NCBI GenBank assembly: GCA_001724265.1
Contig: MEDY01000096.1
Location: forward strand, 1-64,000
Direction of reading: 5' to 3'
Origin: Rhizaria sp. SCN 62-66
Taxonomy: Eukaryota
DNA: 64,000 bases
The notes under the pieces were generated by a model. That model had not been told where the DNA came from, did no database searches, and was given only the letters and a program-made list of their open reading frames with translations. Shown piece by piece: positions 647 to 39,100 of this stretch (positions are counted from its first letter, which is position 1; each line of letters starts with the position of its first letter). The position numbers were made by a program, and so were the translations under genes.

Positions 647-3600
647 ATGGGAGCCTGCAATAGCGCCCCCTGCGCCCGCAAACCCGGCCCCGACACGGGC
701 CCCGGCCCAGGTGGCTCCGGCGCTGTGAAGGGCCGCGGCAGGGGCAAGGGCCGGGATAAGGGCCGAGGCACGGCGGGCGACGGCAGCCGCGAACAGCCCC
801 AGCTTTACGGCGACTCGAGTCCGGTCGAAATCGCACTTGAACCGTCGTCTAAGGGGCAGGGACACTTAGATCGGGACGATAGCAGCCCGCTGCCGCAGTC
901 GCTGACGGCCTTCACTGGGGAGGACGATACGACAACCTCTACTGTGCCAGCCACGGCCACGGCGACGGTGACGGCGACGGATACGGTGCCTGCGACGACG
1001 AGCGCGAGTGCGGCCGAGATTGCCAATAGTAACTCACAGTCGCAGACACAGTGGCAGTCGCAGTTTGAGCCGGAGAAGCCTGCCGAGCCCCCCAAGCGCA
1101 AGGGCGGCTGGTTTCGCTCTCTGTTCAAGTCCAAAGACAAAAGCAAGGACAAGGGCAAAGCCACTGAGAAAGGCAATGATAAGGGTAACGCTGACAAGAA
1201 CAACGGTAACGGCAACGACGCCAAGAAGACTGACAGGGACGACAAGTCTGGCCGCTATCGCCACGATTCCGCGCTGGATGGCGATGCAGGCGCGACACGT
1301 GACCGTGAGCACAGCGGTGGCGGCGCCTCCGAAGGTCAGTTGGACAACCACAACACGTTCACCCTGACAGAGGACGGTGGCTTTACTTCGCCGTCGTCGG
1401 GCGGCCTAACTTTGATCCGCCCCCCCAACACACTCAGCGGCCTCGCTCTGTCCGCCACGAACACCAACACCGACACCGTCTCTGGCACTGCCACGGGCAC
1501 TGGCGCTGGTTCTCGCAACACGCCCGGCGGTGATGCAGACTCCGACGCTGCCTCACGGTCTCCGTCACAGCCAAAGTCGCGGTCGCGCTCACAGTTAGAA
1601 TCAGGAGAAGACACGCTCTCTCAGTCCGGTGACTTGTTGTCGCCTCCGGTGCCAATGCTACATTCGCTTCTCGCGCCGCCGCCGTCGCTGTTGTTGGCTG
1701 GGGTGCCGGCGTCTCTGCGCGCGCAGTCGCCCGCCGCGAGGCCCACCGCGTCGCAGTCCAAGCGGCAGCGGCGGCCACAGCAGCAGTCAGATGGCGAGAG
1801 TGTTGGCGACTCGACTGAGGAGGACGGCGTTGTTGCAAGCGCGAACGCGCTTACGAGCACCACTGACTCCACTGATGCAACTGGTGACGCTCATGGTGGT
1901 TTCCAGCTTGTGTCTCCGCTCTCGGCGCAGCTGCCACCTCGAACTCGCCCCGGCTCGGGCTCAGGCTTTGGCCACGGCTCAGCCTCTGGCTTTGGCCCTG
2001 GCTCAGGCCTCGGTGCTCCTGCGGGAGGACGGAGACTGCGGCCGCGGCCGCGGCAGTCGCTGTCGCCAGTTCACCACTCCGTCTCGGCCTCAGCTCTAAA
2101 CGATAACAACATGAAATACGATGGCGACGACGACGACGCCAGCAACGGCAACAACACCGACTCGCAGAGCGACGACGACGACGACGACGGCAGTGGCAGC
2201 ATTGCCGGCGGTCGACAGCGCCAGCCGCGCCCCCGCACCCGCAACGGCGGCGACAGCGGCCACACGAGTCGCAACAGCCACAACCCTCACTCCGCACTGC
2301 TGCACACGTCGCGCTCGATGCCGCCCGTGGTGCCGCCGCGCCGCGGCTCCCGGGCGCGGCCGGACGTGTTTGGCACTGGCAACGCCAGCTACAGCGACAC
2401 CACCACCAACAGCAGCGACGACAACAATGCCAACAGTGCCAGCGATGCCAACAACGCGAGCGCCGATGACGCTGAAGCTGGCGGCAAGGGGCCCAAGACT
2501 GGCGCTGCAGCGAAAAGCAGCGACGACGGAAGCGACAGTGCCAGCGACAGTGGCGATGACGACGATGACGGAAATGGCGATGAGAGCGGTGCAGCCGTGG
2601 GCACTTACATGTCCGCATCTAAGGGGGGAAGCAAGGGGGACGAGCGGTCGGTTTCGCGCTCACAGTCACTCTCATTCTCTCCATCGCAGTCGCAGCTTCA
2701 GGCGCAAACCCCGCAGCAACAACAGCAGCAGCAGCTGCAGCGGCCGCCGCGCCCGCTGCCAGCGCGCCCGCCACGACACCCTGCTGCCGCGACTACAAGC
2801 ACTCGCACTACTAGCGCAGCAGCACAGCAAACGCATACGAAGCCTGGCAGTGCTGTGCCCGTGGCCAGGCCGCCGCGGCCGCAGTCGCCGCCGTCCTCGT
2901 CGCAGCTGCGCGCATAGCAACAACAACAACAACAACAACAACAACTGCAACAACAACAGGCGCAGTCGCTGTCTCCGCCGCAGTTGCGCACTGCTGCTCA
3001 CGCACATGCCGCTCACGGTCACTCCGCTCATGGTCACTCGATCCCCTTTGCGAACCTCACCTCGGCGAGACCGCTAGTGACCGTGGGCAACGCGACCGTG
3101 AGTACCACGGGCACCCTGGCAAACAACAACAGCAGCAGCAGTGCAGGCAGCACGGTCACCAGTACCGACTCCGGCTCGCTGCCCCCGGCGGCGCACTCGC
3201 TGGCCCGTACATCCTCTATCAGCGCTCACCTAAGTGCCCATGACCGCGCACTGCTCCTTGCGTCGCCCCACTTGGATGATGACGGCGCTGCGTCTCAGGG
3301 TGCTCAGTCGGGATCTAAGGGCCACTTACGCGCGGCCGCGCGCGCCTTCCGCCGCGCCAGCCGCGCGCGCGGCGGCCACTCGCCGCTGCCCCGCCTGCGC
3401 AGTTACGCCTTCCCCCCCGCGGTGCCGCCCGTCACGCAACGCCAGCACTAGCAGCAGCACTACCGCCGCTACGCCGAACAACAGCAGCAGAAACATCAGC
3501 TCCAGTTCCAGCAGCGGCGCAACGGCAGCGGCAAGCCCCGCCGCGCCGCGCCGCCGCCGCCGCCGCCGCCGCTGCCGCCGCCGTGTCTGTTCACGTTCCA

Positions 3601-4768
3601 GGTGCGCACAGTCACCTCTCCGGCCTTTGCTGAGGCGCAGCGGGACAAGCTCAAGGACGTCCGCGACCGGCTGGAGGCCGCGCGGCTGTTTCGCGGGCAG
3701 CCGCAGCACCACGCGTTCGGCGTCCTCACCGCCTCACAGACGCAGTCGCCTCCGCAGCCGCAGTCGAGGCCGCAGTTGCAGCCGCAGCAGTCCAGGGGCA
3801 GTGCGGGCGCGGAGGCCGCGTTCGCCGCGGCGCTAGCCGCGACCGCGCTGGGCTTCGCTGCCAACGGCGGCCACTCGGACAGCGAGGACGACGTGGTGGC
3901 GCTGCTGCCGGGCACGGCGCTGCCGATCCCGCAGGCCGCGGTGCTGGCCGCCACGGGTGCGCTGGTCTCGCAGCCCGCAGACAAGCTATCTACCCCCGCA
4001 AAGAGTAAGAGCGGCAAGGCTTCCGGTGCAGCTGGCAATGGGCTGAGTCTCCCTGTCTCTGCGACTGCGTCTGGCGCTGGCGCTGGCGCTGGCGCTGGCG
4101 CGACAAATGACCGCGGGTTTGCTACCCCGCAGCGTGGCGGTCCGCAGCGCAGCGGGCTGGCGGCGTCGTCGTGCCCCATCGACCCGCGCGCGTTCGCGCA
4201 GCCTGGCCACAGTGCCGCCGCCGCCGCCGCCGCTGCTGCAAGCAGCCACAATAGCAACCACGGCCACGGCTATAGCATGCATCCGCAGCATCAGTACCCG
4301 CAGCAGCAGCAGCAGCAGCAGCAGCAGTACTTGCATGACATGCGCTCACAATCGCCTCGCATCCCCGACCGGCCGTCGCAGCGGCGCATGAGTGCCCCTT
4401 ACACCGACCCGTCTAAGGGCGGCCCGGGCCCTTACATGCACCTGCATGCGCACACACAGCCCCAGTCCGTGTCAAAGTCGAGGTTGCCGGTGCTGCCGGC
4501 ACCAACCGTTATTTCCCCCGCGGTCTCGTTCAGCAACAATAACTCTCATTTCCACCACACCTCGTACTCTGGTCACCCCGCGACAGCCCACGGTCACCTC
4601 GCCGCCCACGGTTACTCCGCCCACGGTCACCCGTCGCCCTTCGCCGCGACTGCACCTGCGCCCACGCCTGCGCCCACGGGCGCGTTCATGGTTACCAGCG
4701 TCGTGTCCCCCCAGTCTCCCTCGGCCGGCCGCATCCGCAGCGCGCGCAACAACAACACCAACAACAGC

Positions 4769-4829
<61 letters not shown>

Positions 4830-7800
4830 GCAATACTGGCAATTACAATGGCAATATGTATTCCCCGCATCGTACGGCGCCCTTACCCATTACGGCAAGT
4901 CTTAGCAGCTCAGTGCTGCCCCCGCCCCCGACTCTCCTCGCCGGCGGCCTAACCTCCGGCGTTGGCGGCTTGACTTTTGCTTCCCCTGCGAACGCGTCTC
5001 TTGCAGCCGCCAGCGGGCTCGGCCTCGGTCTCATGTCCCCCGCCGCGGTCGCTCACAGTCACTCTGCTCACGGTCACTCTGCTCACAGTCACTCGGCGAT
5101 TGCGGCGGGATTGATCTTGTCGCCACTGCAGGGCGGCTACAGCGCGGGTATGTACGTCGCGCCCGCGCCGGTGCGCTCGGCGCCCGCGCAGAGGCACTCG
5201 CGCGCCGGCGGCACCAACAGAGGGAGTGCGAATCACCCTGTGGCCGCGAACGATCGCATGAACACGGGCAGCTCTGTTGCAGGCGAGTCAACTTTTGACC
5301 GCGAGCGCGAAGGCAAAGCGACGCAGCAGCAACAGCACCCACAACAACCGCATCAGCCTCAGCAGCAGCAGCAGCAGCAGCCGCAGCGGCAGCCGCAGTC
5401 TCAGTCGCCTGCGCTGTCGGCTTTGTCGTTCGCGTCTTCCGGCTCGCCGTCGCCGTCCCGCCGCGCCCACAGTCACTCCATGCCCCCCGCAACCCCCACT
5501 GGAACTGTCGCTGGCGCTGTGTTTGTTCCTAGTACCGGCGCTCTCAGCCCACAACAGCAGCAGCAGCGCCTGTTGCGCTCGCAGTCGCCCGTTGTTGGCG
5601 TTCTGCATGCGCGCTCGCACTCGCCCGCCCCGGCCTTGCTGCGCTCGCAGTCGCCGGGCCAGCCGACGGGACAGTCGCCCGCTCCGCTGCGCGCACAGTC
5701 GCTGGGCTTCGTGCTCAGCCCTGGCCGCGCACAAGCCAGCGGGACCAGCAGCAGCAGCCCCGGCATTAACCCTGTTAGCTGGCCCACGAACCCAGACTTT
5801 GCCACTGACGCTAACGCCAACGCTAACATCGCCACCGCCGCCGCTTCAGCTGCTATGATACCGCCGCTCACCGACCCCAGTCCGATCGGCGTAGTGCTCA
5901 GCGGCGGCGCGACTGCCGACGGCGACGTCGCTCTGTCGTCACCCGCCGGCCGCCGCACCGCCAGCGCGGCCCGCGCGCGCACGTTGCCGCAGTCTTTCTT
6001 CGCACCTCTACTCACGGCCGCCTCCGCGCATCCCGCGCACACTGCAGAGCAGGCCGGCGGAGCGGCCGCGGTGCGCAGTCACGGTGACGGCAGTCCGGGC
6101 GTGTCCCAGGGAGCGACGGGCAGCAGTGTGCTCACGCCGCCGCTGCCCATGTCGCCACAGCAGCAACATCAATACCAGTTGCAGCAACAGTATCAGCAGC
6201 ACATGCAGCAGCAACTGCAGCAGCAGCAGCACATGCAGCAGCAGGAGGGCTATAGCGCGAGCGGTAGAACGGTGTCGTTCGCCCCCGTTGTTGCAGCCCT
6301 TGCTGGTGTCGCCACCAGCTCCACTGCAAGCGCCAGCGCCAGCGCCAGCGGAAGCGCACGTGCTGATGTTGGCGCTGACGCCAGCGCTAGCGCTGTGGTC
6401 AACTCCACCTCTGTTCCCGACAGCCCCGCGGTGCGGGGAGACGGCGGGGTACTTACATTCGCCGCCGTCGTTGGCGATGGGGTACTTACACCGCTCCACC
6501 CCGTGCGCTCCTCGACGCCGCCTGTAAGGGTCGGCACGCCGCTGGGGGTGCTTACACCCGTCGGAGCCCTTACGCCGGGCCGGGCGCTCGGCGTGAGCGT
6601 GCGCGTGCAGACCCCCGAGCTGGGGTACTTGCAACTGGCGACCCCGCTCGCCGCGACTGAGGCCGGCACGCACTGGATGTCTCCGCGCGCCGCCGGCGCC
6701 GCTCACGACTTCACTAGCAGCACCCAACACGCCGCCGTGAACGTGCACGGGGGCAGCAACGCGAGCGCGAGCGATGGTGACAGCAGCAGGGTCAGTGCCG
6801 AGAGAGCTCCTGCGACTGCCGCCGTCGCTCGCAGTCAAGCTCCTCCCAGTGATCGCGAGCAGCAGCAGAGCGCGGGTGACCGTGGGCAGTCCACCGGTGA
6901 CTGTGAGCCGTCCGCTGGTGACCGTGGGCAGGCTGTTATGGGTGACCGTGTTGCAGTGTATGCCACGGACACGGACACTGGCGAGAGAGTGCTCGTCGGG
7001 CTGGTTTCGCCGACGACTGTCAACACTACGAATAACAACAACAGCAGCAATAGCAGCAACGACAACACCGCGGGCACGCATGTCAGCAGCCCCGGGGCTG
7101 CCAATACCAGCGCCGATAAGGCCAGAAACAGCAACGAGAATAATACCTATTACAATGACAACAACGCTGATGGCGATAGCGTAAGCGTGAGTAGTGTCGA
7201 TGTTTCCGACACTGACTTCAACATCGACAATGCTGCTCAGGAGCAGCAGCAGCAACAGCAGCAACTGAGTCCAAGTACCCCCTTAGATGCTGCGCAGGTG
7301 CAGTCGATTCTTTCGCCAGCACACAACTCGCTAATCATGCCCACTCCGAATCAAACTCAAGCCGCGCCAAATCAAGAGCGTGCCACCGGCGCTCAAAGTC
7401 AAGCCACCTCTAACAATAGGGTCACTCTGCCCAGAACTGAGGGTTTCATGACTGCATCGTTGGAGCTCGAGGCAGAAAGTCAAGCCGCGTGGTTACGCAC
7501 GATCATGCGTCCGGAGGGTCACCAGCTGTCGTCCCCGCCGTCTCACTCGCGCTCCCACTCACAGTCGCTGACACAGTCGCAGCCCCAGTCGCAGGCGCAC
7601 TCGCTCGCGCAGTCGCAAGCGGCGCCCATGACCGCGGCCGCGCTGGTTGCCGCCATGACCGCTGCGATGACCTCGCCGTCGACCCCCATCTCGCCCGCCC
7701 CCGCGACCGCCGCGACGGCGACCCCCGCGACGGTGACGCTCACTGCGGCTGCGGCGGCGGCTGCTGCTGTATTGGTTGCAACTGCGCCCGCAACTGCGCC

Positions 7801-10800
7801 GAGTATGGTAACGAGCGTGGTGCCCGTGACGCCCGTGGCGGCGTTCAGTGCGCACGTCTTTGAGAGAAGCCAGACTAGCAGCAGTGGCGGCGGCCGCGAC
7901 CGCAGCAGCGCTGACTACTGCTCCGGCGGCCCTGTCAACGACGCCGCGCACGCTGGCCAGGCTCATGCGCTCTCACCCGCAGCTGCTTACGGTCGCTTTG
8001 TCGTTAGCTCTGACGAGCTAGACGGTGGGCTAGATGCGAATCGGTCGCTGTCGCCGATGCAGCCTCTCCAGTTTCTGCAGTCGTCGGCGGACCTGGAGGT
8101 GAGGCTGCTCTCACCCACCTCGCCGCCTCCGGCGCAACCGCGGCAGCTGTTGCAGCAACAGGTGCAATCACAGAGCGACGCTGTGGCGCCGAGAGCGCAC
8201 GCCAGCATTGACACCGGCGCGAGCGCAGACACTCAGACTTTTAGCTCCAGTGCTGACGGCGGTGTTCACTCTAACGTGAGCCCTTATGCGAGCGGCAGAG
8301 TCAACACCGACGAGTCTCAGGTGCGTGTGACTGCTACTGCCCCCTTAGACAGCAACGGTGACGTAAGTGCCTGCCTGGCCCACGCCAGTACCGGAAGCAT
8401 GCCGGAGTATGACGAAGACGATGTGGAGATTGTCAGCGGCAGCTCACAGGCGTCGGCTGGTCCGAGTAACGCCTCGAACAACGCCACTGATGTCAGTCAA
8501 GGTGCGCCCCAGCCACAGTCGCCGCCTCAGTCGCCGTACCAGTCTCGGCAACGCACAGTAGCTGCCTCAGGTGACAGCCGGACTCCCACTCACAGTCAGC
8601 CGTCTCCCAGCGTCGATCGCCCTGCACGCTCGAACGCGGCTGAAACTGAGACAGCGCAGGGCGCTCTTGCTAGCGGTGGCGACGACAACGACGAAGCTGC
8701 GATGCTGGCTGCCGCGGGCGTGTTTGTGCGCGACTTGGCTCAGTTTCCGCGCGGTGCATCCATGTCTCCGGCGTTCGCGAGCAAACTCGCTCGCGACAGC
8801 CAGCGCATTGACGACGACGACGGCGCAGTCGAGAATGCCGACGCGAACACGACGAACATTGCCCATATGAGAGACAACCAGGGCCAACAGCAGCGAAACA
8901 ACTCAGGCTCGAGGGTCGACGTTTGCGCTGACCGTAGTATCGTCAAGGGGACTGTGTCCAGTGGCGGGTCTGATGGCGTAAGTACCCCCTTAGTGCACAC
9001 GGTTGCGATCAAGAATCTGGATGACCCGCGCGAAGACACCACGTACTCGTTCCTGTCACCTGCCGCGCTCGCCACGCTTGCGAACAACGCCAACGCGAAG
9101 AACTGCTCTGAGAACATGAGCGGCTATAGCAGCAATCGCGCTGTGAGCGCCCCTGAAGTCAATGCTGGCTTGGAGGACTTGAGCGGAGTTATGGGCTCCG
9201 AGTATCGCGCTGAGGAGCAACCCCATCAGCAGCAACAGTCGCAGCAGGTTGACTTGACGCGCCAGCCCTTAGACTCCCCGCCGTACAGCAAGCTGCCGTC
9301 GAATGGCCCCGCATCCCCTGTTCTGAACACCCGTGGTCGTCCGACGCAGCTGCAGCCACACCAGTCGCCGCACGCCCCACCGCCGCACGCGCCGCGTGAC
9401 GTGAGTCTGGAGGCGCGGCGGCGCGCGCAGGAGAGCCGGCGGCTGGGCGAGCAGCGCCGCGCGGACGTGCTTATCGGCCATGAACGTCAGCAGCGCCAAC
9501 AGCAACAACAACAGCATCAACAGCTATTGCAGCAGCAGCAGCAGCAACGCCAAGAGCGAGGTGATCACGGAGGGCACCCAGATGGCGGGAGTAACAGCGC
9601 GTTTAGCACGCCTTCTAAGCACTACCGCAGCGGCACTCGCTCCAGCGACGCCGGTCAACATCACGCCGCTGGCGCGCCGCGCGAGACCCCGTCCCGGTCT
9701 AAGGGCCCCTTAGACGGCGAGATGGATCCCTGGGAGGCGCACGCGGCGCACAGGCCCGGGTGGGTCCCGGGCTCTGTGCGCCGCACTCGCCGTGACTCGT
9801 GTGCTTTCGGTAGCGACGCCAGCAATGAGGGCGACTTGCTACTGCCAACGGGCGTGTCCCATACACACATCCACAGTCAGAGCCAAATCCAGAGTCTCAA
9901 TCAGAGTGAGGGCCAGAGCGCTGCCGCGCGCAACAGGGACAGGAGCCTGAGCCGGAGCCACTACCGCTACAACGGCAACGACGACGACTATGACGGCAAT
10001 CAGAACGTCAACGGCACCGCCCACGGGCACAGCGGCGCAATCACGTTCCCGCCGTCACTCTCCGCCAACCCGAGCGACACGACCCTGAGCGGCGACTCTG
10101 CTTCTGCGCCCGTTGACCCCGCAGTGGCCGCAGAGGCGGCTGTGAGCGCCATTGCAGCGGCCGCGGTTGCCGCGGTGCAGCGGGGGCTTTTGCATAGCTC
10201 CGGCGCGAATGCCGATGCTTCTGCAGTGAATTCGAGGGTTTTGCCGCAGTCGCACAGCGATCCCACGGACGTTAGCGCTTACAACAATACCGCGGCCCAC
10301 GCCGTTGATCGGACGTCGATTCGCCGCATTCTCTCGCGCGGGAATCTAAGTACTCCCTTACACCCCGCACTCCCTGGCTCGCACTCGGTGCCGACGGTGA
10401 TGCCCTCAAGCGTCAATACGAGCAACACTTATAATGGAAACAGCGCTGCCACTGCAAGTGCCTCTGCAGCAGTGAGCACCCCAGCAAAGCCCCGTGTCAG
10501 CGCAGGGTCTGACCGCGCGCGCGCCTACCTGGCGGCGCGCGACGCGGAAAACACGGCCGCCATTGCCAGGGCGGCCGCTGCGGCTGCTGCAGAGGCTGCA
10601 GCACCTGTTGTTGCCGCCGTAGAGTTTGGTGCTGCTGATGGAGATGATGGAGCTCACCGGGGTCGCACGCATTCGAACTCATTTACCGAATCAAATGTGA
10701 ACAACAACCACGGTACTGATCGCGAGGCTCGTGGTATCGCGTTTGACGAAGAGGAAGACGCGGTTGAGGAGGACAACGACGAGAGCGTGATGGTTGTGAC

Positions 10801-12823
10801 TGGACCTGCAACTGTGACGAGACTTGCCCCGCACAGTTACAACAACGCACGAGATCACAACTACGATGGCGCTCGCCGGAGCTCCCCAGCTGCTGCGTCT
10901 GGTCCGACGCGCTCAGTGCACCGCAAGCAGCAGCGTGGTAGCGGAGCTGTTTCGACGCCATCCGCAGTGCCAATGATGCCGTCGTCGAGTCTCGCATTCA
11001 CGTTCACACCGACTGGCGCTGGCGACAAAAGGGCTCACATGTCACGCGATATCATTAACTTCAACTTGACCCGTGGCCATGCATCCGGAAGCGCAGCAGC
11101 GCCTGCAACGCAGCGTGCCGATAGTGACGCTACTGACGATCTCAGTACTCCGATGAAGTCTAAGCGCAGTGTCATCGGCGGCGCCCCCGCGCCTCGAGTC
11201 AGCTTCTCCCCCACGGTCGCTTCCGACCCACAGCCGCTCGTTGCGAACCCGCAGGTGTTAGCAACGGACTCGCTGTTGCCGACCAGCGACTCACAGCCGC
11301 GCACTCAGCTTGCGCCTCCAGTCGCCGCTGTTGCGACTGGCGATGCCGGCGTTGAGTTCATCCGCAAAGACGGCGGTATTATTGGCGCCAGTCTCAGCGC
11401 GAGCGTGAGCGTGACTGGGAGCGAGTCCAAGGGTGAGTCCGAGGACGGGGCCGTGCCACCGTCGAAGGCTGAGGGCTTGCTGAAGCCTGACGACGAGCTC
11501 ACGTCGCCCTACGTCTACGGCTACGACCACTCAACTCCCGCGTTCAAGCAGCACCAGCAGCACGGCTACTCGAGCAAAGATGGCAGCAAAACGGGACCGA
11601 TCACTCCCGGCGGCAGCGTAAGTACCCCCTTAGACTCCTCCGCGACGCCGCGGCGCCGCAAGTACATCCCGGCTGCCGTGTACCAGCAGGGCTCCGCGGC
11701 CGTGTACAAAGCGATCACTGGCACGTCGGGGACAGACTTCTACGGTCCCGACGGCGGCCCACGCATTGTCACGAGCAAGACAACGACGATCGTTGCCCCG
11801 AAGCAACCGCGCAAGTCGATCATGGGCGTGAACACGCCGTATAAGGCCGGCACTGCGCGCGTCAAGGACGGTGGTAAAAGTGGTGACTTTGCGCAACTCT
11901 CAGTAGCGCAACTGTCGCGCTCGCCGTCACGCGCACAGTCGCACTCACGGTCACGTACACAGCCACAGCTGCGGTTCCCCTCTCGAGGCCAGCTCGCACC
12001 GACTGTCACTGCGCCCACTGTGACTGCAACTCCGGCTGCGCCTGTTGTGACGATGGTGACGAGCGCAATGCACCCGAGTCTTGGTCCGGGGTCAAAGAGC
12101 GGCAAGCCGCACACTTATAGCAGCAGGGCTGCAGCCGCAACTGCGGCGCCGACGAACAGCAGTGCAACGCCTGTGAACAGCGCTCCGACCGCGATGAACG
12201 CACACGCAGCGAGCAAGTCTGGCGCGGGTGATCATGACGTCACTGGTGGTGACGGCGACTGGGACAATGGGGAGAATGAGCGCGAGTTGCTGCGGCTTCG
12301 ACGCTTGTTTAAGCACGTAGCCACTCGCCAGGCTGCTTTCGACGAACAAACTCAAGCCGCCGCTGCGAATCAAAATCAAGCCGCTCTCACTGCGGCGCGA
12401 AGTCCGATCAACAGTGATATTGCTAGCTTATCTGTTCCTGTCAACGCTACCAGCAATAACAGCAGCAACACGATTGTCACATGTGTTACCAGCAGCAGTC
12501 ACAGCCTGGGTTTGAGCGAGGCCGAGAGTCTTGCCGCGTTGCAAGCCATCATGCGCAGCGCCCTGTCCGGCGGTCACACCGGCACTAATCACGCCGGCGC
12601 GACTCTGGGCGCCGTCACCTGTGACGCGGTTGCTGATGTTGGTGTGAACAATGGTACAAGCGCTAGCGGCAGCAGTGGCGGCCTGTCGTGGGCGTACGCG
12701 CCGACGACGGCGGCGCAGCACGTCGCGACAACAAATGCGAACGCTAATGCTGCTGCGGCGGCGGCAGCGGCGACTAGCGGCGGTAGAGCACTCGGGATGG
12801 TTGTGAGCTTTGGGTCGCCGTAA
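647..12823 (+). CDS. Giant intronless low-complexity/disordered protein (~4058 aa if TAG is read as sense), N-terminal MGACNS acylation-type motif
   Basis: ORFs 647-2917, 2984-3451 and 3602-12823 share one frame and are separated only by single TAGs at 2915-2917 and 3449-3451. The sequence between them is open and coding-like (poly-Q, poly-P). It ends at TAA 12821-12823, followed by AT-rich 3' sequence. Confidence 0.75.
2915..2959 (+). repeat. (CAA)n poly-Gln tract headed by an in-frame TAG
   Basis: gca TAG (caa)9 ctg caa caa caa cag, in the frame of ORF 647. Confidence 0.9.
4748..4829 (+). repeat. (AAC)n microsatellite encoding poly-Asn
   Basis: Long, near-perfect AAC run inside the giant ORF. 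Confidence 0.95.
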
Positions 12824-19563: not shown

Positions 19564-19598
<35 letters not shown>

Positions 19599-25500: not shown

Positions 25501-28500
25501 CGCCGAGACCGGCACAACCGTGTCGCCGGGGCTGGCTGCGGCCGCGGCCGCGGCCGCGGCGGCATCGTTAAGGACAATGGAGTTCTGTGCGTGCTGCGCG
25601 TTGAGCGCGTGGCTGTGCGAGCGCGCGGTGCGGACCGCGGCGGCCGCGGCGGCCGCGACGACGGCGGCGCCCTTGCCCTGCGTGGCGCGCGCGGCGGGCG
25701 AGACGTAGGCGGGCGTGAGCTGGCAACGGCGCAGCGAGAGCGCCGCCAGCGCAGTGCCGCGGTGCGACAGCAGCGTCGTCAGGGCAGGCAGACTCGCCGG
25801 CGACAGCGGGTTGCCGTCCAGAGTCAGCACACGCAGGTATGGGTACCCGCGCGTTGGCGTCGCCGCTGTCAGCCGGCGGTCCGCAGCTACGACAGCAACC
25901 GCAGTGGCCGCGGGCTTAGCTTTGGCAATGCGCGGCTCGCGGGTCGTATCGCGACGCGAAGACTTACCGCCGCTCTTGCTCTCTGAGCTCCCGTCCTTCT
26001 CGTCTTTGCTCTCACCGTCTTCGCCGTCTTCATCGTCGTCATTGCGCTTGGAATACTTCTTCTTCTTCTTGCTTTTCTCTGCGTCCTTATCTTTGCTCGC
26101 GTCGGCCACAGCAGGCTTCGCGGCGCCGGACGCCGCCACCGCAGCCCACAAGTCTTTATCGACCTTGCCGCCGCCAGCCGCTGCCGCCGCCGCCGCCGCA
26201 GCGGCCGCCTGCCTGCCCGCAGGCCCGTTGCTGCTGCTGGCCAGCGCGCGCGCGGCGTAGGCCTTGCGCGCCGCCGCGTGCGCCGCGCCCGCGCCGCCCG
26301 TGAACGCGGTGGCGAGCGCGGCGACCGTGGCGGCCGACAGCGCGTTGCCCGCGAGGTCGAGGCACGTCAGCGCGGGCAGCGACGGCCGCGGCGCCGCGCC
26401 GCACAGGTCCGCGAGCTCCAGCGAGTACGCGCGCGAGAAGCGGGGCGGCTTAGCTTGCGGGGCAGAGCTCGGCGCAAGCGCAGAAGCTGCAGGGGGCGCA
26501 GATGAAATCGCAAGACGACCGTTCACGCCGATTGTCGTGTTGTTGCTAACGTGGCCGGTCGCAGCCGTGTAGGGAACCGTGAGCGCGAGCTGCGGCACGG
26601 ACATCTGCGAGGACGCAGCAGTGACCAGCGCCATAATCGCGGCGTCCAGCTCGGTGCCGCTGCTGACGCCTGCGTGACGCAGCCGCAGCGAGACAAGCCC
26701 GCGGTGCCAGAGACCCTGCAGGCGCGGGATCGGCAGCGGCGCAAGCGCCTGCTCCGCGCGCAGCCGCTTCAGCGCGGCGCGGCGCGCGGCAGGCGCCAGG
26801 GCCGCCACGCGTTGCAGTTGCTCGGGGCTCAGACCGCGCGAAAGAGCCTCCTCCTCGGCCTCGGCGGCGTTGGGATCGGTTCTATAGTCGTTCTCGCCGT
26901 CATTGGCGTCGTCGTCGGCGTCTGAGTTGTCGCAGTCGCTGTCGCCGTGGTACTCCGCGTTGTCGTCGTCCGCCGCGACCGCCGCACTGCTGCTGTACAG
27001 CACGACTCTCCCGCTGACTCTGTCGCTGATCCTGTTGCGCAGATACGCGCTCTGCGGCCAGAGCGCCTGCAGCGCCTGGTCCGGCCGCAGCAGCGCTTCG
27101 CCGAACACCAGCGTCGGCACGTTCTGGTTGTAGATCGACGCCGTCACCACGGCCTCGCCCGCACTCGCGGCGGCCGCTGCCGCCGCGGCGGAGACCACGG
27201 CCTCGGCGGCCGCAGCGGCGGCAATGACGCCGCTGTTGGCAGACGCGGCCGCTGCGGCGGCGCCAGTCAGAGGCGCGGGCGCAGGCACAACTGCCGTCAC
27301 GGGGGGAGGCGCCGTCGCCGCCGCGGTCGCAGCCGCATACTTCGGGTCCAGCTTGGCGACAGCTGTGGTCGTCGCTGGAGCTCCTGGTGCTGCTGCTCCT
27401 GATGCTGCCGTTGCTTCGGTCGCCAGCGCTGTCGCAGTGGTCGTGACACCGCGGCGAGCCCACGCGACCTTGCGATGCACGCGGCGCGCGATGGCGGCCT
27501 CGGCCAAGTCGGCGCGCTGGCCGGCGTCCCACGCGGCGCGCGCGAGGTCCTGCAGTAGCACCGCGTACAACGAAGACAGCGACAGCGTCGACAGCGACAG
27601 GGAGTCGGCGGCGTACGCCTGGGACTGGGCGTGCAAGGTCAGCTGAGACTGCGAGTGCCAGTGCGAGCGGGACTGTGACTGTGAAAGGGAGTTGCCGGTG
27701 CCACGCAGTGGGGGTAAAGGCGAGGGCGCGAATTGAACGGGCGCGCTGAGGTTGCAGTAGGGATTGTGCGCGACGGTTGTCTGGCACGTCGCCAAGAACG
27801 CCGCGACGTCGCGCCCGCGGATTAACTTCAGGTTCAGCGCCGCGGCGGGCGGCCCAGCCCAGGTCACCGTGCCCTCCGACTCGGCCTCGGCGGCGGCGGC
27901 CACTGCGGCGGCGCGCTTGGCCGCGGCGGCCGCCCGCTGCGCGCGCGCAGTCTGCACGGTCAGCCCCAAACGCGTGGTGCTAAGGCTCGCGTGCAGCGCA
28001 CCGGCCTGCGCGCGCAGCCGCGGCACGGGCAGGCTCAGCTCCTGCATGCGCGGGGACAGGAGCGCGCCGTCTGCGTCTGCGTCTGCGTCGTCGTCCTCGT
28101 TACCGTTGGGGTTGGGATCCTCGGGGTTCGAGTTAGGCCGCGTGCGGCTTAACTTCGTGCAGGCGCGTGCGCTAGCGTCAGCGCCATCCTCGCCGTCAGC
28201 ATCGCCGATATCGAGATCTTGCTCTTGCTCGTGGGCGTCGCCGGCCTCGTCCTCCGGCCCCTGCTCTTGCTCATGCTCGTTCTCGCTCTCCTCGGCGATC
28301 TTGGCATCAGTCGTCGCAGTCGCGACTTTCTTGGCACTAGCTTTGCCTTTGCTAGCGTCGTCGCCATCATTGTCACTGCGGTGGCCATTATTCTCAGCAT
28401 CATCACCATCGTCATCCTCGTCGCCATTCGCGCTCGCGCCCGCCTTACCGCGCGCGCGGCCCTTGCCCTTGGCCGCCGCGGCCGCCGCCGCCGCGCCGCC

Positions 28501-30473
28501 GCCCAGCGCAAGCTCCACGAGTGCGCCGGGCGCCGTGAACGTGCCCAGCGCGGCAGCCGTGACGAGTCCCAGCCGCGACGCGCCCTCGAAGCAGAGGCGG
28601 CGCAGCGCCGTCTGCGGGTGTCGCAGGTGGTGGTGCAGCGCGTGCGCGGCGACGGGACCGAAAAAAGACGGCCGGCGCCCGGGCAGCGGCGAGAAGTCGA
28701 ACGAGCGCAGCGGCGACGGGCGCACGCGCGGCGGGTAAGTGACCGTGGGCACACTCGTCCTAGCCGCGGTCGCGGTCAAACTGACCGAGGGCCCCCCGGT
28801 CAAAGTGACCGTGGGCGGGCGATCGTAGTTGACCGGTGCGGAGAGCAGGCACGCCACGGCGGCGCCGCTGAGCCCGCAGCCGCGCAAATCCACTGCTGCG
28901 AGCGCGCGCGTGACCGTGAGCAGGGCCGCGAGGGCCGCGGCGCCCGAGTCGCCCAGCGCGCAGCCGGCGAGCGAGAGCGCGCGGAACGCGTCGCTGAGCG
29001 CGTCGTTGCCGGTGCTTTGCTGCTGCTGCTGCTGTGCGGCGGGCTTCGTTGCAGCGGCGCTAGAAGCGGCAGCGCTGCGGATGCGTACCGAAGCGAGCGT
29101 GTGGGCCGTGAACACCTCGTCGCAGCCGCTCGACATGACGCCGCTGCTGCTGCCGCTGCCGGCCGCGCCCACCGTCATCGCATACGCATCGCCCGCGCCG
29201 CCAGCGCCGCCAGCGCCCGCGCCGCCAGCATCTACGCCGCCGGCGCTGCCGCCGGAGGACCCCGTGGCGGCGGCGGTAAGTGCGAGCAGTAGCGCCTCGG
29301 GGGCCGGCCGCAGCCACGCCCGCGCGCGCGGCGGCGCGTAGGCCGTGGCGCCGGTGCTGTGCGGCAGCGCGAAGGGGAACGGGGCCGGCGGCGGGATCAC
29401 AAGCGCGGGGCTCGACGTAGAGCAGCTGCTGCTGTTGTTGTTGAGCTGAGATGGCCGTGGCTGTGAGCTTGGTGACTTTGGAGTCTGGGCTGCAGTCTCG
29501 GTCTCCGTCGCTGTCTCCGTCTTCGTCTCAGCCTCTGCAGCCTGCGCCGCCGCCGCGGTCTGCCCCTGTCCCTGCTGCGTCTTCGCGGCGTGCGCAGCGG
29601 TGACGGCGACCGCGGCGGCGGCCTCGTTGGTGAGCGCGTCCGCGTAGCTCTGCGCGTCCGCGTGCGAGGTAATCGGCGTGCCGCCGTCAACGTACACCGG
29701 CAGCAACGCGTCGGCGGGCGCCAGAAAGTGCAGCAGCACCGCGCACGTGTAGGGGCCCGCGCCGGAGAAGGCCACCGAGAGCGTGCCCAGCCCGCCCCAC
29801 GACGCGGGGCCGCCACTGCTCGCGGCGGCAGCCGCACTGGCGCTCGCAGGCGCAGTGGTGCTGCCGGTCGGGCTCGCGCTCGGACTCGGAGCCTCATTTG
29901 CATTTGTGGTCGAAGCAGCGTCAGTAGTGTTCGGATTGCCATCAGAGCTGCACGCATGTGTATCTGTGTTCTTGCTGTGGCGTTGAGAACGTTTCTTGTG
30001 CGCAACGCCGTCGTCTTCGTCGTCGCTGTCAGTCTCGCTGTCGCCGTCGCAGTCGTTGCCGCCGCTCGAGGCTGAGGCGGAGGCTGTCGCGGCGGCAGTC
30101 GTGTCGGTCTCGGGGCCAGCAGTGATGACGCCGTCGCTCAGAGGCCCTTCGTCGTCGTCGTCGTCGTCGTCATCGTCGTTGCCGTTCGAAGCACGGCCAA
30201 AGCCGCCGTTGCCGCGACTGCCGTTACTGCCGAACAAGTCCTCATCAGCCGCCGCGCTGACGCTCGCACTCCTCGCGTGCGCGCCGCCGCCGCTTGCCTC
30301 GGCGCGCGGATTGCGGATATTGCGGTTGTGCGACGGCGTGGGCGGCACGGGCAGCACAGAGACGACGAGGTCGCTTGTGTCGACCTCGCCTGTCGCGCCG
30401 CTGCCAAGCCCCAGCCCGCCGCCAGCGCCACCGCTACCAACGCTACCACCGCCGCTGCCGCTGCCGCTGCTGC

Positions 30474-30519
<46 letters not shown>

Positions 30520-31200
30520 CGAGTCGTCGCTGCCTTGCATACCGTAGCTACTGCTGCTGCTGCCCGCGCTGTTCGCGCTCGCGGCAGCCGGCGTCGGCAC
30601 AAAACCGCCGAGCAGGCCCCCGCCCATCCCGACGCTGCCGCCGCCGCCGCCGCCGCCACCGCCGCTACTGCTGCCGTTGGAGCGCATCGACGTCGAGATG
30701 ACTGCAGAGATCATCTTCGCGCCGACGCTGCGGCCGGCGCTCTGGCTGCTACTCGCAGTCGCAGCAAGGCCGCCGCCGCGGGCACTCGCGCGCGCGCTCA
30801 GGAGGCTCGTCGCGGTCGCAGCCGACGCGGTTGCGCTCGATGCCAGAGTGAAGTCGAGAGACTTAGCCGTGGCCGGCGCTGTGGGGAGCTGCGGTGTGCT
30901 CTCGTCAAACACGAACTGCTCAAGACTGCCGGGAAGGTTCAGTCCCTCGCGCGCGTGCATGGCGCAGGCAAAGGCGGCGCGAAAGCGGTGGTAGCCCGCG
31001 GCCGTGGGCGTCGTGGCCTGGTCTCGGCACCGGGCGAGGAACAGGGCGTCCTGCAGCGAGACCAAGGAGCGCAGAAACGCGCGCTCCGTCGACTGCGAGT
31101 GTGTACGGGCAGAGACGGTGGGGATCGTCGGAATCGTGGGCCGCATGGAGTCATGTGGGGGCGAGGGCGGCGGCGGGGGGCCGTGCACAGGGGCATCCAT
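17419..31200 (-). CDS. Giant leucine-rich-repeat (ribonuclease-inhibitor-like LRR) and coiled-coil protein (~4497 aa). Exons 31200-20590, 20459-20274, 20115-17419
   Basis: LRR motifs LSLAGCALGDSGAAALAALL, AVDLRGCGLS, LTCLDLAGNALS, LRVLTLDGNPLS, LRRLNLRANRLD, LVRLDLSLNP. Two phase-0 introns (20460-20589, 20116-20273, both with GTACG donors) join ORFs 20455-31299 and 17419-20109. Stop TAA. Confidence 0.75.
30450..30517 (-). repeat. (AGC/GGC)n trinucleotide repeat encoding poly-Ser/Gly in the LRR protein
   Basis: (GCT)n run on the + strand. Confidence 0.9.
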
Positions 31201-31453
31201 CCGTTTCCCAGGTGAAGTGTCAAAAAGTGGGGTTGGAAGACTGTAACAAGAAATCCAGAAGTGGTATTTTGTGAGAATATTGTATCTATCGCGAAACAAC
31301 TGGATATAGTAGTCGTATTTGTAATGACGGAAGACTGGGTGAGATACAGATAGGCACAGTGGTCGCCATAAGAAGCGACTGTGGGAGCCGTTCGGCCAGT
31401 CTCAGCCAGAGCAGCTCTGATTATGATCTTCGTTTCCTCTATCCGTATTGCGA
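31201..31453. promoter_or_regulatory. Probable bidirectional promoter between the divergent LRR gene and BCDIN3D
   Basis: Only 253 nt of AT-richer sequence separate the two head-to-head ATGs. No specific motif identified. Confidence 0.5.
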
Positions 31454-32920: not shown

Positions 32921-33153
32921 TGTGATCGAACACAAAACGTAACGAACTTTGAGATTTCTGCGCGAGTGCAACTCTCTTTTTTCTTGATGTATTTATTTGT
33001 GTGTATTCGTGTAGCCTTATATTCATATTTCTTTCGCAAAGGATCATTTATTTTGCAGGCCATTGGCTAAAAATAAACTCTCAATTATAAAAGATTCTTT
33101 ATTGATGCTACTTTGCAGCTCCAACGTGTTTCTTGCTTGTCATACAATCATTA

Positions 33154-36100
33154 TCACTCGAACGCCCTGTTGATGCTCTCTCTGAGCTCGATCTTTGCCC
33201 TGCGCACCTCTGCAAGCGCCGCGCCGCGCCCATCGCCGCCACCCTCCTGCGCAGCCGCGCGGCGCACCATGTTCCCCGCGTTGCTGCACAGCGCAAACGC
33301 CGCGCGCGCCGCGTCGCGCGCCGCCCGCGCGCGGTCCGCCGCGGCGGCCTCGAGCCCGCGGCGCAGACTGCGGCCGCCCTCGGCCACTGTCGCTGCCGCG
33401 GCCTCGGCGGCGTGCGCGGCCGTCTGCAGCCGCTGCGCGCCGCCGAGCTCGCCGCCGCCGGGAGCCAGGATCTGCGTCAGCTGGACCGCCGCGCGCTCAA
33501 ACCCTGCGAGCGCCGCCGTCATGACTGGGTTAGTGCGCGCGCCACTGCCGCCGCTGCTGATGCTGCGAGCGAGAGGGCCGCCGGTGTCGGCGGCGCTGCG
33601 CAGCGGCGCGGTGCGTGCGCGCTTGGTCGCCGGGAGCAGCACAGGCAGCGCGGCGGCGCCCTCGCTGGGCGCGGGCGACAGCAGCTGCGACGCAATTTGC
33701 GAGAGCTCGGGCTTTGAACGCTGCTGCGGAGGGGTGAACTTGGCCGCGTCGGTGCGGGCGCCGCGGTCAGCCTTCCCGCGTTGCGGCTGCGGTTGTTGCA
33801 CTGCGCTAGCGCCTGCGCCGATGTTGCCGCGCTGGCTGACGGGCACGTTCTCCTCGTCGTTGGCGTCGTAGTCAAGGTCGTGCATGTCGCTAATGCCTGC
33901 ATCGCCGAACTCGTCAACGGCGACATGGGCAGCGACGTTAGCATGAAGCTCGTCCTCACTCTCGCTCTCGCCCTCGCTCTCAGCTGCAACGGCAGTCTTG
34001 CCCTTGCGCTGGCCAGCAACAGCCCGTGCGCCAGCCTTGCCCTTGCCGCGAACAGCAGTGGCAATCTCGTCAGAGTCTGTGACTTGGCTGTCAGCCGCGC
34101 TGGCGGCAGGCGCGGGCCGCTTGAGCCTAGCCCTCGCGCTCGGCAGCATCGGCGACACCACGGTTGCAACCTCAACAGCTCTCACACCGGCAGTGTCGTA
34201 ACTGACGGGAGACTGTGAATGCGACTGCAAGAGTAGCCGTGAGCGGGTCGCCCGGGGAGCGACCGCGGGGGCGGGAGAAGCAACCGTCTGCTCCGCGGAT
34301 GTGACCGCGGAGGTTGGCGCCGAAGGGTATGGCGTCATAGCCTTGTACGCCGCAAGGGGCGACGCAAACCGCACACCAGCGCCCTTAGCCATGCTCGCAC
34401 CGCGGTCCCTGGCCATGGCAACACCGCGGCCTTGAGCCTTACTCTGAGCGCGCCGAGTGACCGCGTTGTCGCGCTCATCCTCGCTCGCTCCCGCAGCAGC
34501 TGCGGTTGCAGCAGCAGCAACAGCAGGTTTGGTAGTCTCAGGAGACGCAGTTGCGCTGCTGCTTGCGCTTCCGCTCGCCTCAGCGCTCGTGTCGGTAGTG
34601 TCGGTGGCAGCGCCAGTGCGGCGGCGACGGCGAGAGCGGACTCCGCTGCCGTCGTTGCCCACAGTCATCTCAGTGCCGCCTCTCCTGTCCACGGTCACCT
34701 CTCCACCCTCTGCGGCCCCTTCGTCGCTTGTTGCAGCTGCAGTCTGAGCGCGGCCACGGCTTCGGCCGCGGCGGCTCGCTGCATCAACGCCAGCGCCTGC
34801 GGCAGCTGCTGCGGCGGCGGTCCTCGAAACAACAGCATCTGCTGGGCACGCAAACAGAACGCTTGTTGGGGGATGTGCCGGTTGACTAGCGGCATTAGCG
34901 CCAGTGTCAGCGTTTGCGCCGCGGATGCGGCGGCGACTTGTGCTCGGGTCAAGCTGCTGGCTCGACGCCCTAAGAGCCGAGACACTGCTTGGGCGCGGTG
35001 CAGTGAGCCGGGAAGCACTGAGGTCAACAAACTCAGAGTCGACCCAGCCGGAGTCCGGTGCGCGCGGCGGAGACTGCCCGCGGTCACTCTCACGGTCACT
35101 CTCGCTAACGCTGGCGCGGTCGCGGCCACGAACCCGGCCCCGCGGCTGTGTGCGCAGTGGTTGCCGTCGATGATCCTCGTCTTCTTGTTTCTGCAGCGCT
35201 GCAAGGCGGGTGCGCGCCTCTTCCTTGAGCCTCTCCTCGCGTGCGCGTCGCTCCTCAACGCGCGCCGTCACGTTTGCGGCAACAGCGCTGCGCACCTTCG
35301 CGGCCACTGCGGCCGCCGCGGCAGCTGCGGGTGTGCTAGCGCCCTTGCTTGCGCGAAGTGTTGCGCCGCGAGACAGCGTGGCCTCCGGTGCGCTGGGCGC
35401 TGTGGAGCTGCGGGTGGCAGGGTCATTGAGACTGAGGGGCTAATCGATTGCACTAACACGGGGGTGCTTGCCCTTAGTGAGAGATGGCGGCTTAACTTGT
35501 TGCACTTGTGAGACATCTTGGACTTCCGCGTTGTAGTTGCCATCCATGTCGTTGGCAATGCTCTCCTCACTGTCTTGATAGAGGCCGCGCCTACTGCGAA
35601 CAACGCGATCGTTTGTTGCAGTCGCACTAATGCGCGTGACCGGGCTCCTGCCTGTGTTGACCGCAGCGGGACTCAGAGCTCGCGTCGCTGGGCTCTTGCG
35701 CTGTGAAGCGGGACTCACGCCGCGAGTCACCGGACTCTTGCTCGCGCTCTCAAACGCGACACGCGCGCGCGTGTCTACATCACTCTCAGTGCTCGCAACT
35801 GGGCGAGAAAGCGGCATCATGGCGCTTACAACAGAAGTCTTTGCGGCAGCCCCGTGGCGCTGTTGTAAACGCGATTGTTGTTGTTGCTGCGGCGACTGCC
35901 GCAAGTCGGTAACCGCTGCAGTTTTCGTGCTGCCGTCGCTCTGAGGTGCGATGCTTAGATCCGCGGTCACAACTGACGTCTTGGGCGCGCGCGCAGCATT
36001 TGCATCCTTTGCAACACTGGCAGCACGTGCTGCTTCTGCAGCCGCTGTCGCAGCAGCAGCGGCAGCGGCGGGCGTCAGCCTGATGTCTGTCCTTGGCGAA

Positions 36101-39100
36101 GCCAGCAGCGCCGCCAGAGACCCCGGCCGAGGGAGCGGCTTTACTTTAATATGCGGGGATGCCGCGACCGCAGCGTTGCGCTTGAAGGGAGTCCCGCCAC
36201 TCGCTTTGTAGTAGCTGCTCAGAGATGGCGGCGGCTGACCTTGGGCATGGATTGGAGTTGGCTGTCCAGCAGCAGCAGGGTGACTGTGTGTCGCGGGGGT
36301 CTGCGGTGGGTACGGATATGGCACACTGAGCTGCCGGTCCAACGGCGGTCTTGTGTCAACGCTGCCGCTACTGCTGGCCACAGTGATGTTGTTTGGCGCG
36401 TTTGCCCGTGCGACAAACGCCACGTCGCCTGAGCGCACTGCAGAGTCCAGCTCGGCCATGAAGTCTGCCTTCTCGTCTTCATGGAGAGCCATGAGGCCCT
36501 GCATTGATGCAACAGATGTCTTCCGCGGTGCACTTTGTTTCTGTTGCTGCTGTTGCAACATTTGTTGCTGCTGTTGCTGCTGCAGCTGTTGTTGTTGCAT
36601 TGCGTGCTGCTGCTCTCGCGTCTGCGCAGCCGCCATGCTGCTAGCGGTGACTTGGCCACTTAATGGCATAAAACCAGTCGTTGACACCTTCGGTTGCTTC
36701 TTGTAGATTGAGTGTCCGGGCGCCGTTGGGTGGCCGTAAGCAAGCGCAGTAGCCTGGCTCTGCGCTGCCGCGGTGTGATGCTGCTGCGGTGCCGGAGATG
36801 CCTGTGAGAATAAGACCGGTGTCGACTCTAGCGCGTTTCCGCCGCCGCGCCGCGCCCATCCGCTACCCACATGCGGCTGCTGTTGCAGCTGCTGCACGCT
36901 CATACTGCCTGCAACACCAGTGGCGTGCTGCAGCGCACTGCCCGTTGCGCGGTACTGTTGCTGCTGTTGCTCGAAACCGCGGCGATGCAGCCGCAGCTCA
37001 AACAGAGTCTGCATCTCTTTGCCCCACGTTCTCTGCAACTGAACGTGATCAGCCGTGTTGCTTGCAGTCGCGTGTAAGTGCACTGCGGCCGCCACTGCAG
37101 TCGCAGTTGCCTCTATTGCAGCGACGGCGGCGGCTGCGGTCTGGCGCGAGGTGCTGCTAACGTCAGCAACGCGTGTGGCGCCCAGTCGGTCGCGCAGCAT
37201 GCCGGCGCAGTGCGCCACGCCGCACGTCTGAGGTTGCTGCTGCAGGGTAGCAGAGTCAGTTGGTGCAATCGCGCCTGTGCGCAAGATGGAGTGCAACACG
37301 CACAACCGAACGCCCGAAAGCGTGGCAACGTTGTCGCACTCGTTGGCACCTGCGCTGGCACCGCTATCGTTAGCGCCAACGCTGCTGGAGCCAGGTGTTG
37401 CTGTCTAGAGCGACTGGGGCGTAACTGACAGAGGCGCAGTAACTGTGAGTGGCGTTGAGAGGTAGAGAATGGCAGCGGCAGTTGCAAGGCGGCTATCAGC
37501 GCTTGCGCTGCGACTGTCAGTGTTTGTACTGCTGTCAAGAGTGACTGTGAGCACCTGCTCAACTTGCAGATAGCGGCACGAGATGAACTGCACACATTGA
37601 TAAAGTTGCCCGCAGTCGCTGTTCTCCGCATCAGTTGCGGCAGATACAAGTGGCAGTAAAGCAGCTGACTCTGTTGTGGCTGTGGCTGCTCCAGTTGTTA
37701 GCGACAGCAAAGCTGCGGCGCTGTTATGCGTCGCATCGCCGTTAGAGCTGCTACGCCTGCGGCCGCCCCGGCCGCGGCCCGGGCTGCCCTAGCTAAGAAG
37801 GTGGGTATGCGTAGTATCGTGCGTGTGACTGTGCGTGGGCAAACACATCACGACCTTGTCGATGCCAAAGAAGAGCGTGGCGGGCGAGAACGCGTGTCCG
37901 CTGCCGCCAAAGCACACCCCGTCGACACCAACGGTCACCACACTAAGAACACAAAAAAGATAACATGAATGTTGCGTATTAGGGATTTTTTTAAACAAAA
38001 CAGTTTGTCAATTTTTGTCGAACATAATAGCACTTCATGCTGTAATGTGTCAAGATGTTTTTACTTTAAGCCGTACCTTGGCGACGGCGTGTTTTGGCTT
38101 AGCACTGCAGCTAGTTGCACCATGACCCAGCGGCGCCGTGCGCGTGCCGCTTCCGCTCGCGCCTCCGCCGCGGCCTCGGCCTCGCGCTGCTTTTGCTGTT
38201 TTTTTCCCTGCGCAGCGCCAGAGCCCGTGGGCGCGGCGCGGTCATCCGCCGCGCGGGGCGGCGGCGGCGGACTGGCCAGCATGGCGGCCACGTCTGCGTC
38301 GGCGAGCGGGTGGGCGATCTGTGCCCACAGCGCACCGGCGAAACCAGACAAGCCCACCTGCAGTTGTTGCATGCTGCGCTGCTGCTGCTGTTGCAAGGGC
38401 GTGGCAAGAGCGGCGCAGAGTGCCTGCAGAGTGGCCTTCCGCTCAGGCGCGGGCTGCGAGTCAGTTGCCGCGAATATCACGCGCAGCAAGTTCACTGTCA
38501 TAGCGAACCAACATGGCAAGCAAAAGTGACAAAGTCTCAATGTGAGCTTAATCATGCTTGAACTGTAAAGAAAGCAAAAATATATTGAGAACATCATGTC
38601 AAGCTTGTTTCAGACGTACTCTGCAGCATAAAGTCTCCTGCCGCGACGATAGCGGCGGCGATCCTGCCCGCGCTCTCAGCAACCGCAAGCAGCGATGCCA
38701 GCCGCATCTCGCTCTCATCCGCATTGGGGCCACCGGCGCCGGCCCCTTTGCCGCGTGCAACGGCACTGCGCGCGATCGCGAGCGCGGGCGGTGTCAGCGG
38801 CGCGGCCTCGAGCAGCCACGCGCAGGCCTGGGCGGCAATGGAGCTTGCTGTGGCGTCGGCGCCGGCGCCGGGGGACACGGCGGACGGCGCGGGGCTTAGC
38901 GCAAAGGGCAGCAGAGCCGGGACAATGCGGAAACGCAGGTGCTCGAAGAATGGGGCTAAGATGACATGTTATGGAAGTGTAAATCAACAAAGACGTGAGC
39001 AGGACGAACAGACAGTCGAGCATCTACATGAAACTGGGGCGCAATACGTATCAAAACACCACATACCGCGAGGATCTGAGGCCTCACAGATCATGTAGAT

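Follow-up and report, generated by a model that had tools for sequence, protein, structure and literature searches.

Few eukaryotic lineages have been reported in which UAG and UAA carry different meanings. UAG is uncoupled from UAA in Iotanema, where it specifies Gln, in the rhizarian exLh (Leu), in Scotinosphaera (Ser), and in Protocruzia and the phyllopharyngean ciliates (Gln, Leu and others) (PMC5304391, PMC11687900). In the fornicate Iotanema spirale the terminators comprise 104 UAA and 15 UGA with no UAG, and in-frame UAG is common, 22 of 28 falling at hyperconserved Gln columns of conserved proteins (PMC5304391). The code of exLh is documented by 71 UAGs in eight conserved proteins (PMC5304391), and in the aphelid Amoeboaphelidium protococcarum, a relative of fungi, UAA and UAG both encode Gln (PMC6299283, PMC11687900). 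We found no report of UAG reassignment in a eukaryote from wastewater or a bioreactor in the literature, supplementary files being outside the search.

Here we analyse a stretch of 64,000 nucleotides (positions 1 to 64,000 of the forward strand of contig MEDY01000096.1, assembly GCA_001724265.1, deposited as Rhizaria sp. SCN 62-66), referred to below as the window. Three of its genes, which we call A, B and E, are interrupted by in-frame TAG codons, and this suggests that the organism reads TAG as an amino acid. An initial annotation of the window had proposed that UAG is reassigned, probably to Gln, while UAA and UGA remain stops. We find that a sense UAG together with UAA and UGA as stops is supported as the best explanation of the data, whereas Gln as the residue and a full reassignment are not established.

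Six in-frame TAG codons in three genes

Gene A (647..12823, forward strand) is a single exon of 4058 codons that begins MGACNS..., encodes a low-complexity protein rich in Gln, Ser and Ala, and ends with the TAA at 12821-12823; it holds two TAGs, at 2915 and 3449. Gene B (13314..17231, forward strand) has 1177 codons in three exons, with introns at 13833-14005 and 14179-14389, a TGA at 17229-17231 and one TAG, at 17028. Gene E (33154..39388, reverse strand) has 1954 codons in four exons, with introns at 38956-39066, 38495-38619 and 37943-38076, a TGA at 33154-33156 and three TAGs, at 37789, 37405 and 35440. Removal of its three canonical introns joins the ATG and the first three exons in one frame with the last exon (4.8 kb), which holds all three TAGs. 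The end of this gene is a tandem stop, the TGA being followed directly by an in-frame TAA (33151-33156, reverse strand).

All six TAGs stand where the initial annotation had placed them, and at each the frame is open over a long distance both before and after it. Splicing gives ten gene models with 17,641 codons in all, among which there are six in-frame TAGs, no TAA, no TGA and no frameshift (a single TGA that entered the count for gene H precedes the ATG of that gene). The earlier claim that the genes are free of in-frame TAA and TGA is correct once introns are taken out and incorrect for the raw DNA, in which TGAs at 48506 (alpha-kinase) and 55699 (exportin-like) part same-frame open reading frames; both are intronic.

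The first TAG of gene A (2915..2917) is found in the context LRA-TAG-QQQQQQQQQ, with a GC content of 0.58 over the next 150 nt and the next TAA or TGA 3301 codons on. The second (3449..3451; QRQH-TAG-QQH) is followed by 3123 open codons, and the 900 nt after it have no in-frame ATG and a coding score of 0.40. In exon 4 of gene E, the TAG at 37789..37791 lies 51 codons in, that at 37405..37407 follows, and that at 35440..35442 is flanked by open stretches of 654 and 761 codons. The single TAG of gene B (17028..17030) is the weakest case: 66 codons separate it from the TGA, GC being 0.56-0.66 up to the TGA and 0.22-0.34 beyond it. An intron at 17030, where a GTATG overlaps this TAG, seems unlikely; it would be 39-64 nt long and not AT-rich like the others.

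Continuity of frame past the TAGs exceeds chance. The numbers of open codons to the next stop of any kind are 66, 127, 177, 654, 761 and 3123 after the TAGs, compared with 0-49 after ten computed terminators. Base composition behaves in the same manner, the GC content of the 150 nt downstream being 0.56-0.73 for the six TAGs and 0.28-0.52 for the terminators. At true gene ends GC is at or below 0.50 in the second and third 50-nt bins in 10 of 11 genes, and this drop, typical of most true gene ends, is missing at all six TAGs.

Codon usage was modelled on the seven TAG-free genes only and scored in six frames, the non-coding null reaching a maximum of 0.122. In every segment flanking a TAG the gene frame ranks best of the six, with the exception of the tail after 17028. 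Segment 2918-3448, between the two TAGs of gene A, scores 0.153 and thus exceeds the null maximum, and segment 3452-4351 scores 0.401, equal to the rest of gene A, though no in-frame ATG within it could give rise to a separate product. For gene A as a whole the score is 0.393 downstream of the TAGs and 0.399 upstream.

As initially annotated, 12 of 12 genes end in TAA (five) or TGA (seven); ten of these ends were computed and two, at 50650 (MZT1-like, presumably) and 52061 (presumably LSm-like), were read off the sequence. UAA and UGA thus terminate in all 12 genes. In the ten 3' flanks the next in-frame stop is always TAA or TGA and never TAG. The non-coding DNA is also poor in TAG, with 181 observed where 333 are expected, and TAG accounts for 20% of its stop trinucleotides.

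Contigs of other sequencing runs were compared with the window over 20,000 bases that include gene E, the sites in genes A and B lying outside. Contigs from three studies (runs X3, X4 and X5) keep the TAG at 35440, those of X4 and X5 keep that at 37405, and the X5 contig covers that at 37789 with no differing letter. Ten differing places are listed over the 20 kb, none of them at a TAG and too few for a test of selection. The X5 contig (2666 letters) matches 36601-37942 unbroken across two TAGs and ends its match at exon base 37942 with 378 letters over; an end at the first exon base past the predicted acceptor is apparently what would be expected of spliced cDNA. The poly(A) RNA run X7 gave no piece over any TAG among those listed. 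At 36887, in gene E near a Gln-repeat region, several X3, X4 and X7 contigs have T in place of A at partial depth, which may reflect true variation or repeats that cross-match.

For gene A, a predicted protein from an ENA-sourced assembly (P0068) is 100% identical over 98% of the query and starts at the GTG at 3602. This GTG is the first start-like codon past the TAG at 3449, and the start is consistent with a stop having been read at 3449 in that assembly too. Taken with the open frames, the composition and the codon usage, these comparisons support the view that the TAGs lie in real, expressed-looking coding sequence.

Weighing a sense reading of UAG

Since frame, composition and, at five of the six sites, codon usage continue past the TAGs, gene E splices into one frame across its exons, and the same letters recur in independent samples, the best reading is a sense UAG alongside UAA and UGA as stops; we put its probability at roughly 0.6. 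For such decoding a tRNA able to pair with UAG would be needed, the simplest candidate being a derivative of tRNA-Gln(CUG) with the anticodon CUA, and recognition of UAG by eRF1 would also have to be weakened. No eRF1 gene and no RNA family (Rfam) was found in the 64-kb window.

Given sense decoding, Gln is the likeliest residue, to judge from the residues around the TAGs. Counting Gln among the six neighbouring residues of each site, we find an average of 1.33 at the TAG sites and 1.79 at Gln sites (P=0.77), while every other residue gives P<=0.075; Leu is disfavoured, weakly (P=0.043). The Gln-like signal comes mainly from the two gene A sites. A code with UAG as Gln and UAA and UGA as stops is what we take to be NCBI table 15. 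AlphaFold, run without an alignment on 300 residues across two TAGs, gave a mean pLDDT of 34.9, which is unusable.

Several findings weigh against a sense UAG. The codon is extremely rare, at 6 of 17,641 codons (0.034%). Genes A, B and E together hold 337 CAG codons, with a TTG:CTG ratio of 67:165, from which a neutral Gln-encoding TAG would be expected more than 100 times where six are seen, a deficit of some 20-fold relative to a neutral CAG synonym. Its distribution is restricted: there is no TAG in the seven domain-bearing genes (~10,450 codons), and all six occur in three orphan low-complexity genes that make up 41-42% of the codons. Genes A, B and E carry 42% of the mutational paths to TAG, so that their holding all six has a probability of 0.42^6, or ~0.006, and tolerated nonsense mutations would be expected to show the same confinement to orphan genes. 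By codon make-up, 62% of random nonsense mutations would yield TAG, giving P(6/6) = 0.05-0.07, and the absence of TAG from 12 terminators reaches only p~0.07, TAG being ~20% of non-coding stop trinucleotides. The two patterns noted in the initial annotation, six of six in-frame stops being TAG and none of 12 terminators being TAG, are thus weak as statistical arguments, each reaching only p=0.06-0.07.

Further points on this side concern individual sites and searches. The 198-nt tail after the TAG at 17028 scores -0.03 in codon usage compared with 0.21 on the opposite strand, and if 17028 is a true stop then TAG terminates at least one gene here. Gln-like neighbours are equally expected if the TAGs are nonsense mutations of CAG. 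Pfam returned nothing credible on genes A, B and E, an exhaustive HMMER search with 335 residues of gene E exon 4 spanning the TAGs at 37789 and 37405 gave no matches, and ARAGORN and Rfam found no tRNA in the 64-kb window. The X5 run, although labelled RNA-Seq cDNA, is also marked 'RNA? (probably DNA)', and the splice joint is absent among the rows listed.

Given the rarity of TAG and its restriction to three orphan proteins that are Q-rich and disordered, the sense reading that we favour probably does not describe a mature reassignment; decoding is probably inefficient, recent or still ambiguous, as in an early or incomplete capture of the codon. One tentative extension, which we consider possible rather than probable, is that the window offers a natural snapshot of such a capture, in which UAG has been lost as a terminator, a weak tRNA of the suppressor type reads it, probably as Gln, and it is so far tolerated only in disordered Q-rich proteins, the organism being possibly opisthokont-like. 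This would correspond to the 'UAG first, UAA later' intermediate that is thought to precede coupled UAR=Gln codes such as that of Amoeboaphelidium.

Of the alternatives, the one that survives best, though we think it unlikely, is that of a standard code, under which premature TAG stops have arisen in three dispensable genes of low complexity that evolve fast and are either truncated or in recent decay, the downstream sequence being an ex-coding remnant. The three domain-less orphans to which the TAGs are restricted do have the lowest GC at third codon positions (GC3) of the window (0.67-0.72 compared with 0.76-0.90 in the others), TAG is the commonest nonsense outcome of CAG-rich sequence such as theirs and is otherwise strongly avoided in frame, and the tail after 17028 is devoid of codon-usage signal. 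What such decay leaves hard to explain is the form of the damage. It would have disabled three of ~12 neighbouring genes, two of them by two and three TAGs, and yet no frameshift, TAA or TGA has accumulated in ~5,000 downstream codons; the hallmarks of a pseudogene, namely mixed lesions and downstream loss of the coding signature, were not found, the only lesion being TAG. Moreover, the downstream codon-usage scores equal those upstream, as in gene A, sequence as coding-like as 3452-4351 has no ATG for a separate product, GC falls at none of the six TAGs, and the TAGs are fixed across samples of several studies.

Less probable again is a standard code with leaky termination, in which a near-cognate tRNA-Gln reads UAG in Q-rich mRNAs with neither a dedicated tRNA nor an altered eRF1. 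In yeast, near-cognate tRNA-Gln inserts Gln at UAG and UAA with 2-8% readthrough, favoured by flanking Gln codons, by C at +4 and by Gln content (PMC13192750). Genes A, B and E are indeed Q-rich (~5-7% Gln codons) and C is found at +4 at three of the six sites; two TAGs adjoin Gln runs, but Gln codons are adjacent at just two of the six. Rather than a single leaky stop per mRNA in a Gln and +4 C context, we find three TAGs in gene E and two in gene A, and at the yeast rates reported the three in the gene E mRNA would leave ~1 in 10,000 products full-length. Leaky termination also leaves the absence of TAG terminators unexplained, which is weak evidence.

Assembly errors, unrecognised introns or RNA editing are very improbable: each of the six TAGs, ending as it does in AG, could be mistaken for an acceptor, and that at 17028 overlaps a GTATG, but contigs of X3, X4 and X5 have the same letters at the gene E sites, the X5 contig is unbroken from 36601 to 37942, the introns are AT-rich and 111-211 nt long whereas the TAGs lie in GC-rich sequence, and for genes A and B, reads having been compared for gene E only, the start of P0068 alone bears on the site at 3449. 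We therefore retain a sense UAG, with UAA and UGA as stops, as the best reading.

Gene structure and source organism

The window is 55-74% GC in most 2-kb bins, with AT-rich gaps between, and the proteins that it encodes are eukaryotic; they include choline-transporter-like/PNS1, tectonic-domain, alpha-kinase, exportin-like and prefoldin-domain proteins and a Bin3 methyltransferase. Spliceosomal introns are present (111-211 nt, AT-rich, with GTACG, GTATG or GTAAG 5' ends and YAG 3' ends). By demanding one open frame after removal we resolved at least 13: genes B, C and H have two apiece, genes E and J three and gene K one, with a further intron in gene J near 58580-58684 at an approximate position. 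The intron-free genes implied by the initial annotation are thus contradicted, and its count of 12 genes partly merges: 17419-20214 and 20455-31401 form one gene with two introns, and 59215-61128 and 61219-63882 form one gene with one intron.

Gene C (17419..31200, reverse strand) is the first of these merged genes, with 4497 codons, introns at 20116-20273 and 20460-20589, a TAA end and no in-frame TAG. It is a giant gene in which both introns lie near the 3' end, and its sole Pfam hint is a sub-threshold match to LRR_6. Gene F (41261..43045, reverse strand) encodes the choline-transporter-like/PNS1 protein, ends in TAA and has no TAG in its coding sequence. A TAG at 43052-43054 (reverse strand) lies in frame in the AT-rich leader, two codons 5' of the gene F ATG; were TAG sense, the ATG at 43132 would extend the gene by 29 codons, and the composition indicates that this stretch is non-coding. 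Gene H (46838..49516, reverse strand), the alpha-kinase gene, has introns at 48342-48548, which takes in the raw-DNA TGA at 48506, and 49234-49401 and a TGA end.

Gene J (52753..58990, the upper end being approximate; reverse strand) encodes the exportin-like protein, ends in TGA and has at least four introns, at 55585-55755, 57064-57206 (or 57064-57152), 57594-57768 and ~58580-58684. The ENA-sourced protein P0067 and a gene J exon are identical over 919 residues, apart from an in-frame gap of 24 residues within a Gly/Ala repeat (53.9-54.0 kb, GA-rich), whose length differs between assemblies or between strains of this one organism. Gene K (59347..63882, forward strand), the second merged gene, encodes a prefoldin domain and has an intron at 61110-61319, a TAA end and no in-frame TAG. 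Two small genes on the forward strand, 50348-50650 and 51430-52061, occupy the AT-rich region of 50-52.7 kb, the latter being split by two introns; we take them to be MOZART1-like (MZT1-like) and LSm-like, respectively.

The best explanation for the source of the window is an uncultured eukaryote, GC-rich and with introns, that turns up repeatedly in metagenomes of bioreactors and wastewater. Ten of 13 public runs listed, from six studies that sampled metagenomes of bioreactors, wastewater and activated sludge, contain positions 30000-39900. The best named matches of the PNS1 protein are fungal, at 28-30% identity, with closer relatives at 56%, 50% and 37%. Among language-model look-alikes, the PNS1 protein is closest to fungal PNS1 and the tectonic-domain protein to animal tectonins, and these likenesses between proteins provide an opisthokont-like lead, nothing more. 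A first reading as an intron-free, polycistronic kinetoplastid was dropped in view of the introns and the fungus-like PNS1 matches. The initial description of the organism as a flagellate is not borne out either, the one tectonic-domain protein being the only hint of a cilium in the window.

A metagenome scan with the PNS1 protein yielded a contig (L001) identical to 37831-41998, which ends 40 bases before the TAG at 37789. A second contig from the same scan (L002; 15.6 kb, 31% GC) was rejected as unrelated, having no DNA similarity to the window; it was retrieved through a Q/P-rich peptide with 61% identity over 44 residues to the low-complexity PNS1 N-terminus. When contigs of prokaryote genomes were scanned, neither the window protein nor its relative P0004 found a match. 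The exportin exon and gene A, used as queries in word-based protein searches, matched only the same organism, in ENA-sourced assemblies, so there is no divergence to compare.

Comparison with described codes

Iotanema is the closest of the described systems in the form of its code. It shares with the window in-frame UAG codons and terminators that are only UAA or UGA (here five TAA and seven TGA), and for both a CUA-anticodon tRNA is predicted. The window differs in that TAG makes up 0.034% of codons and none lies in a conserved gene, which weakens the case for a full reassignment here, and no column can be aligned. Wide use of UAG that includes conserved genes, the mark of an Iotanema-type code, was not found in the ten modelled genes. 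The window is also unlike Iotanema in its GC-rich sequence, its AT-rich introns and its opisthokont-like PNS1 and tectonic proteins.

Of the other uncoupled codes, those of exLh, Scotinosphaera, Protocruzia and the phyllopharyngeans resemble the one proposed here in that UAG has parted from UAA, and they differ in residue or lineage. From exLh in particular the window differs in two respects, the first of which again counts against a full reassignment: its conserved genes are without TAG, and Leu is disfavoured, weakly, by context. Amoeboaphelidium, in turn, resembles the window in a change from stop to Gln, and the window's PNS1 is most like fungal PNS1, with no evidence that ties the window to aphelids; unlike in Amoeboaphelidium, TAA ends 5 of 12 genes here, with GC falling after most, which identifies UAA as a stop. 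The readthrough described in yeast (PMC13192750) shares with the present case its setting in Q-rich disordered proteins. In contrast to the laboratory nonsense alleles of yeast, with their 2-8% readthrough, up to three TAGs are fixed per gene here and four of the six are without flanking Gln codons.

A practical consequence is that gene callers using the standard code split these genes, as the database protein P0068, which starts just past a TAG, illustrates. If the reading is true, the window would add an independent case to the few lineages with differing meanings of UAG and UAA, and hence a data point on stop-codon capture; a rare UAG in a GC-rich non-ciliate would inform whether capture passes through near-disappearance of the codon or through ambiguous decoding. 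Set beside the known UAG-sense codes, the unusual trait of this one, if real, would be that the codon is nearly absent.

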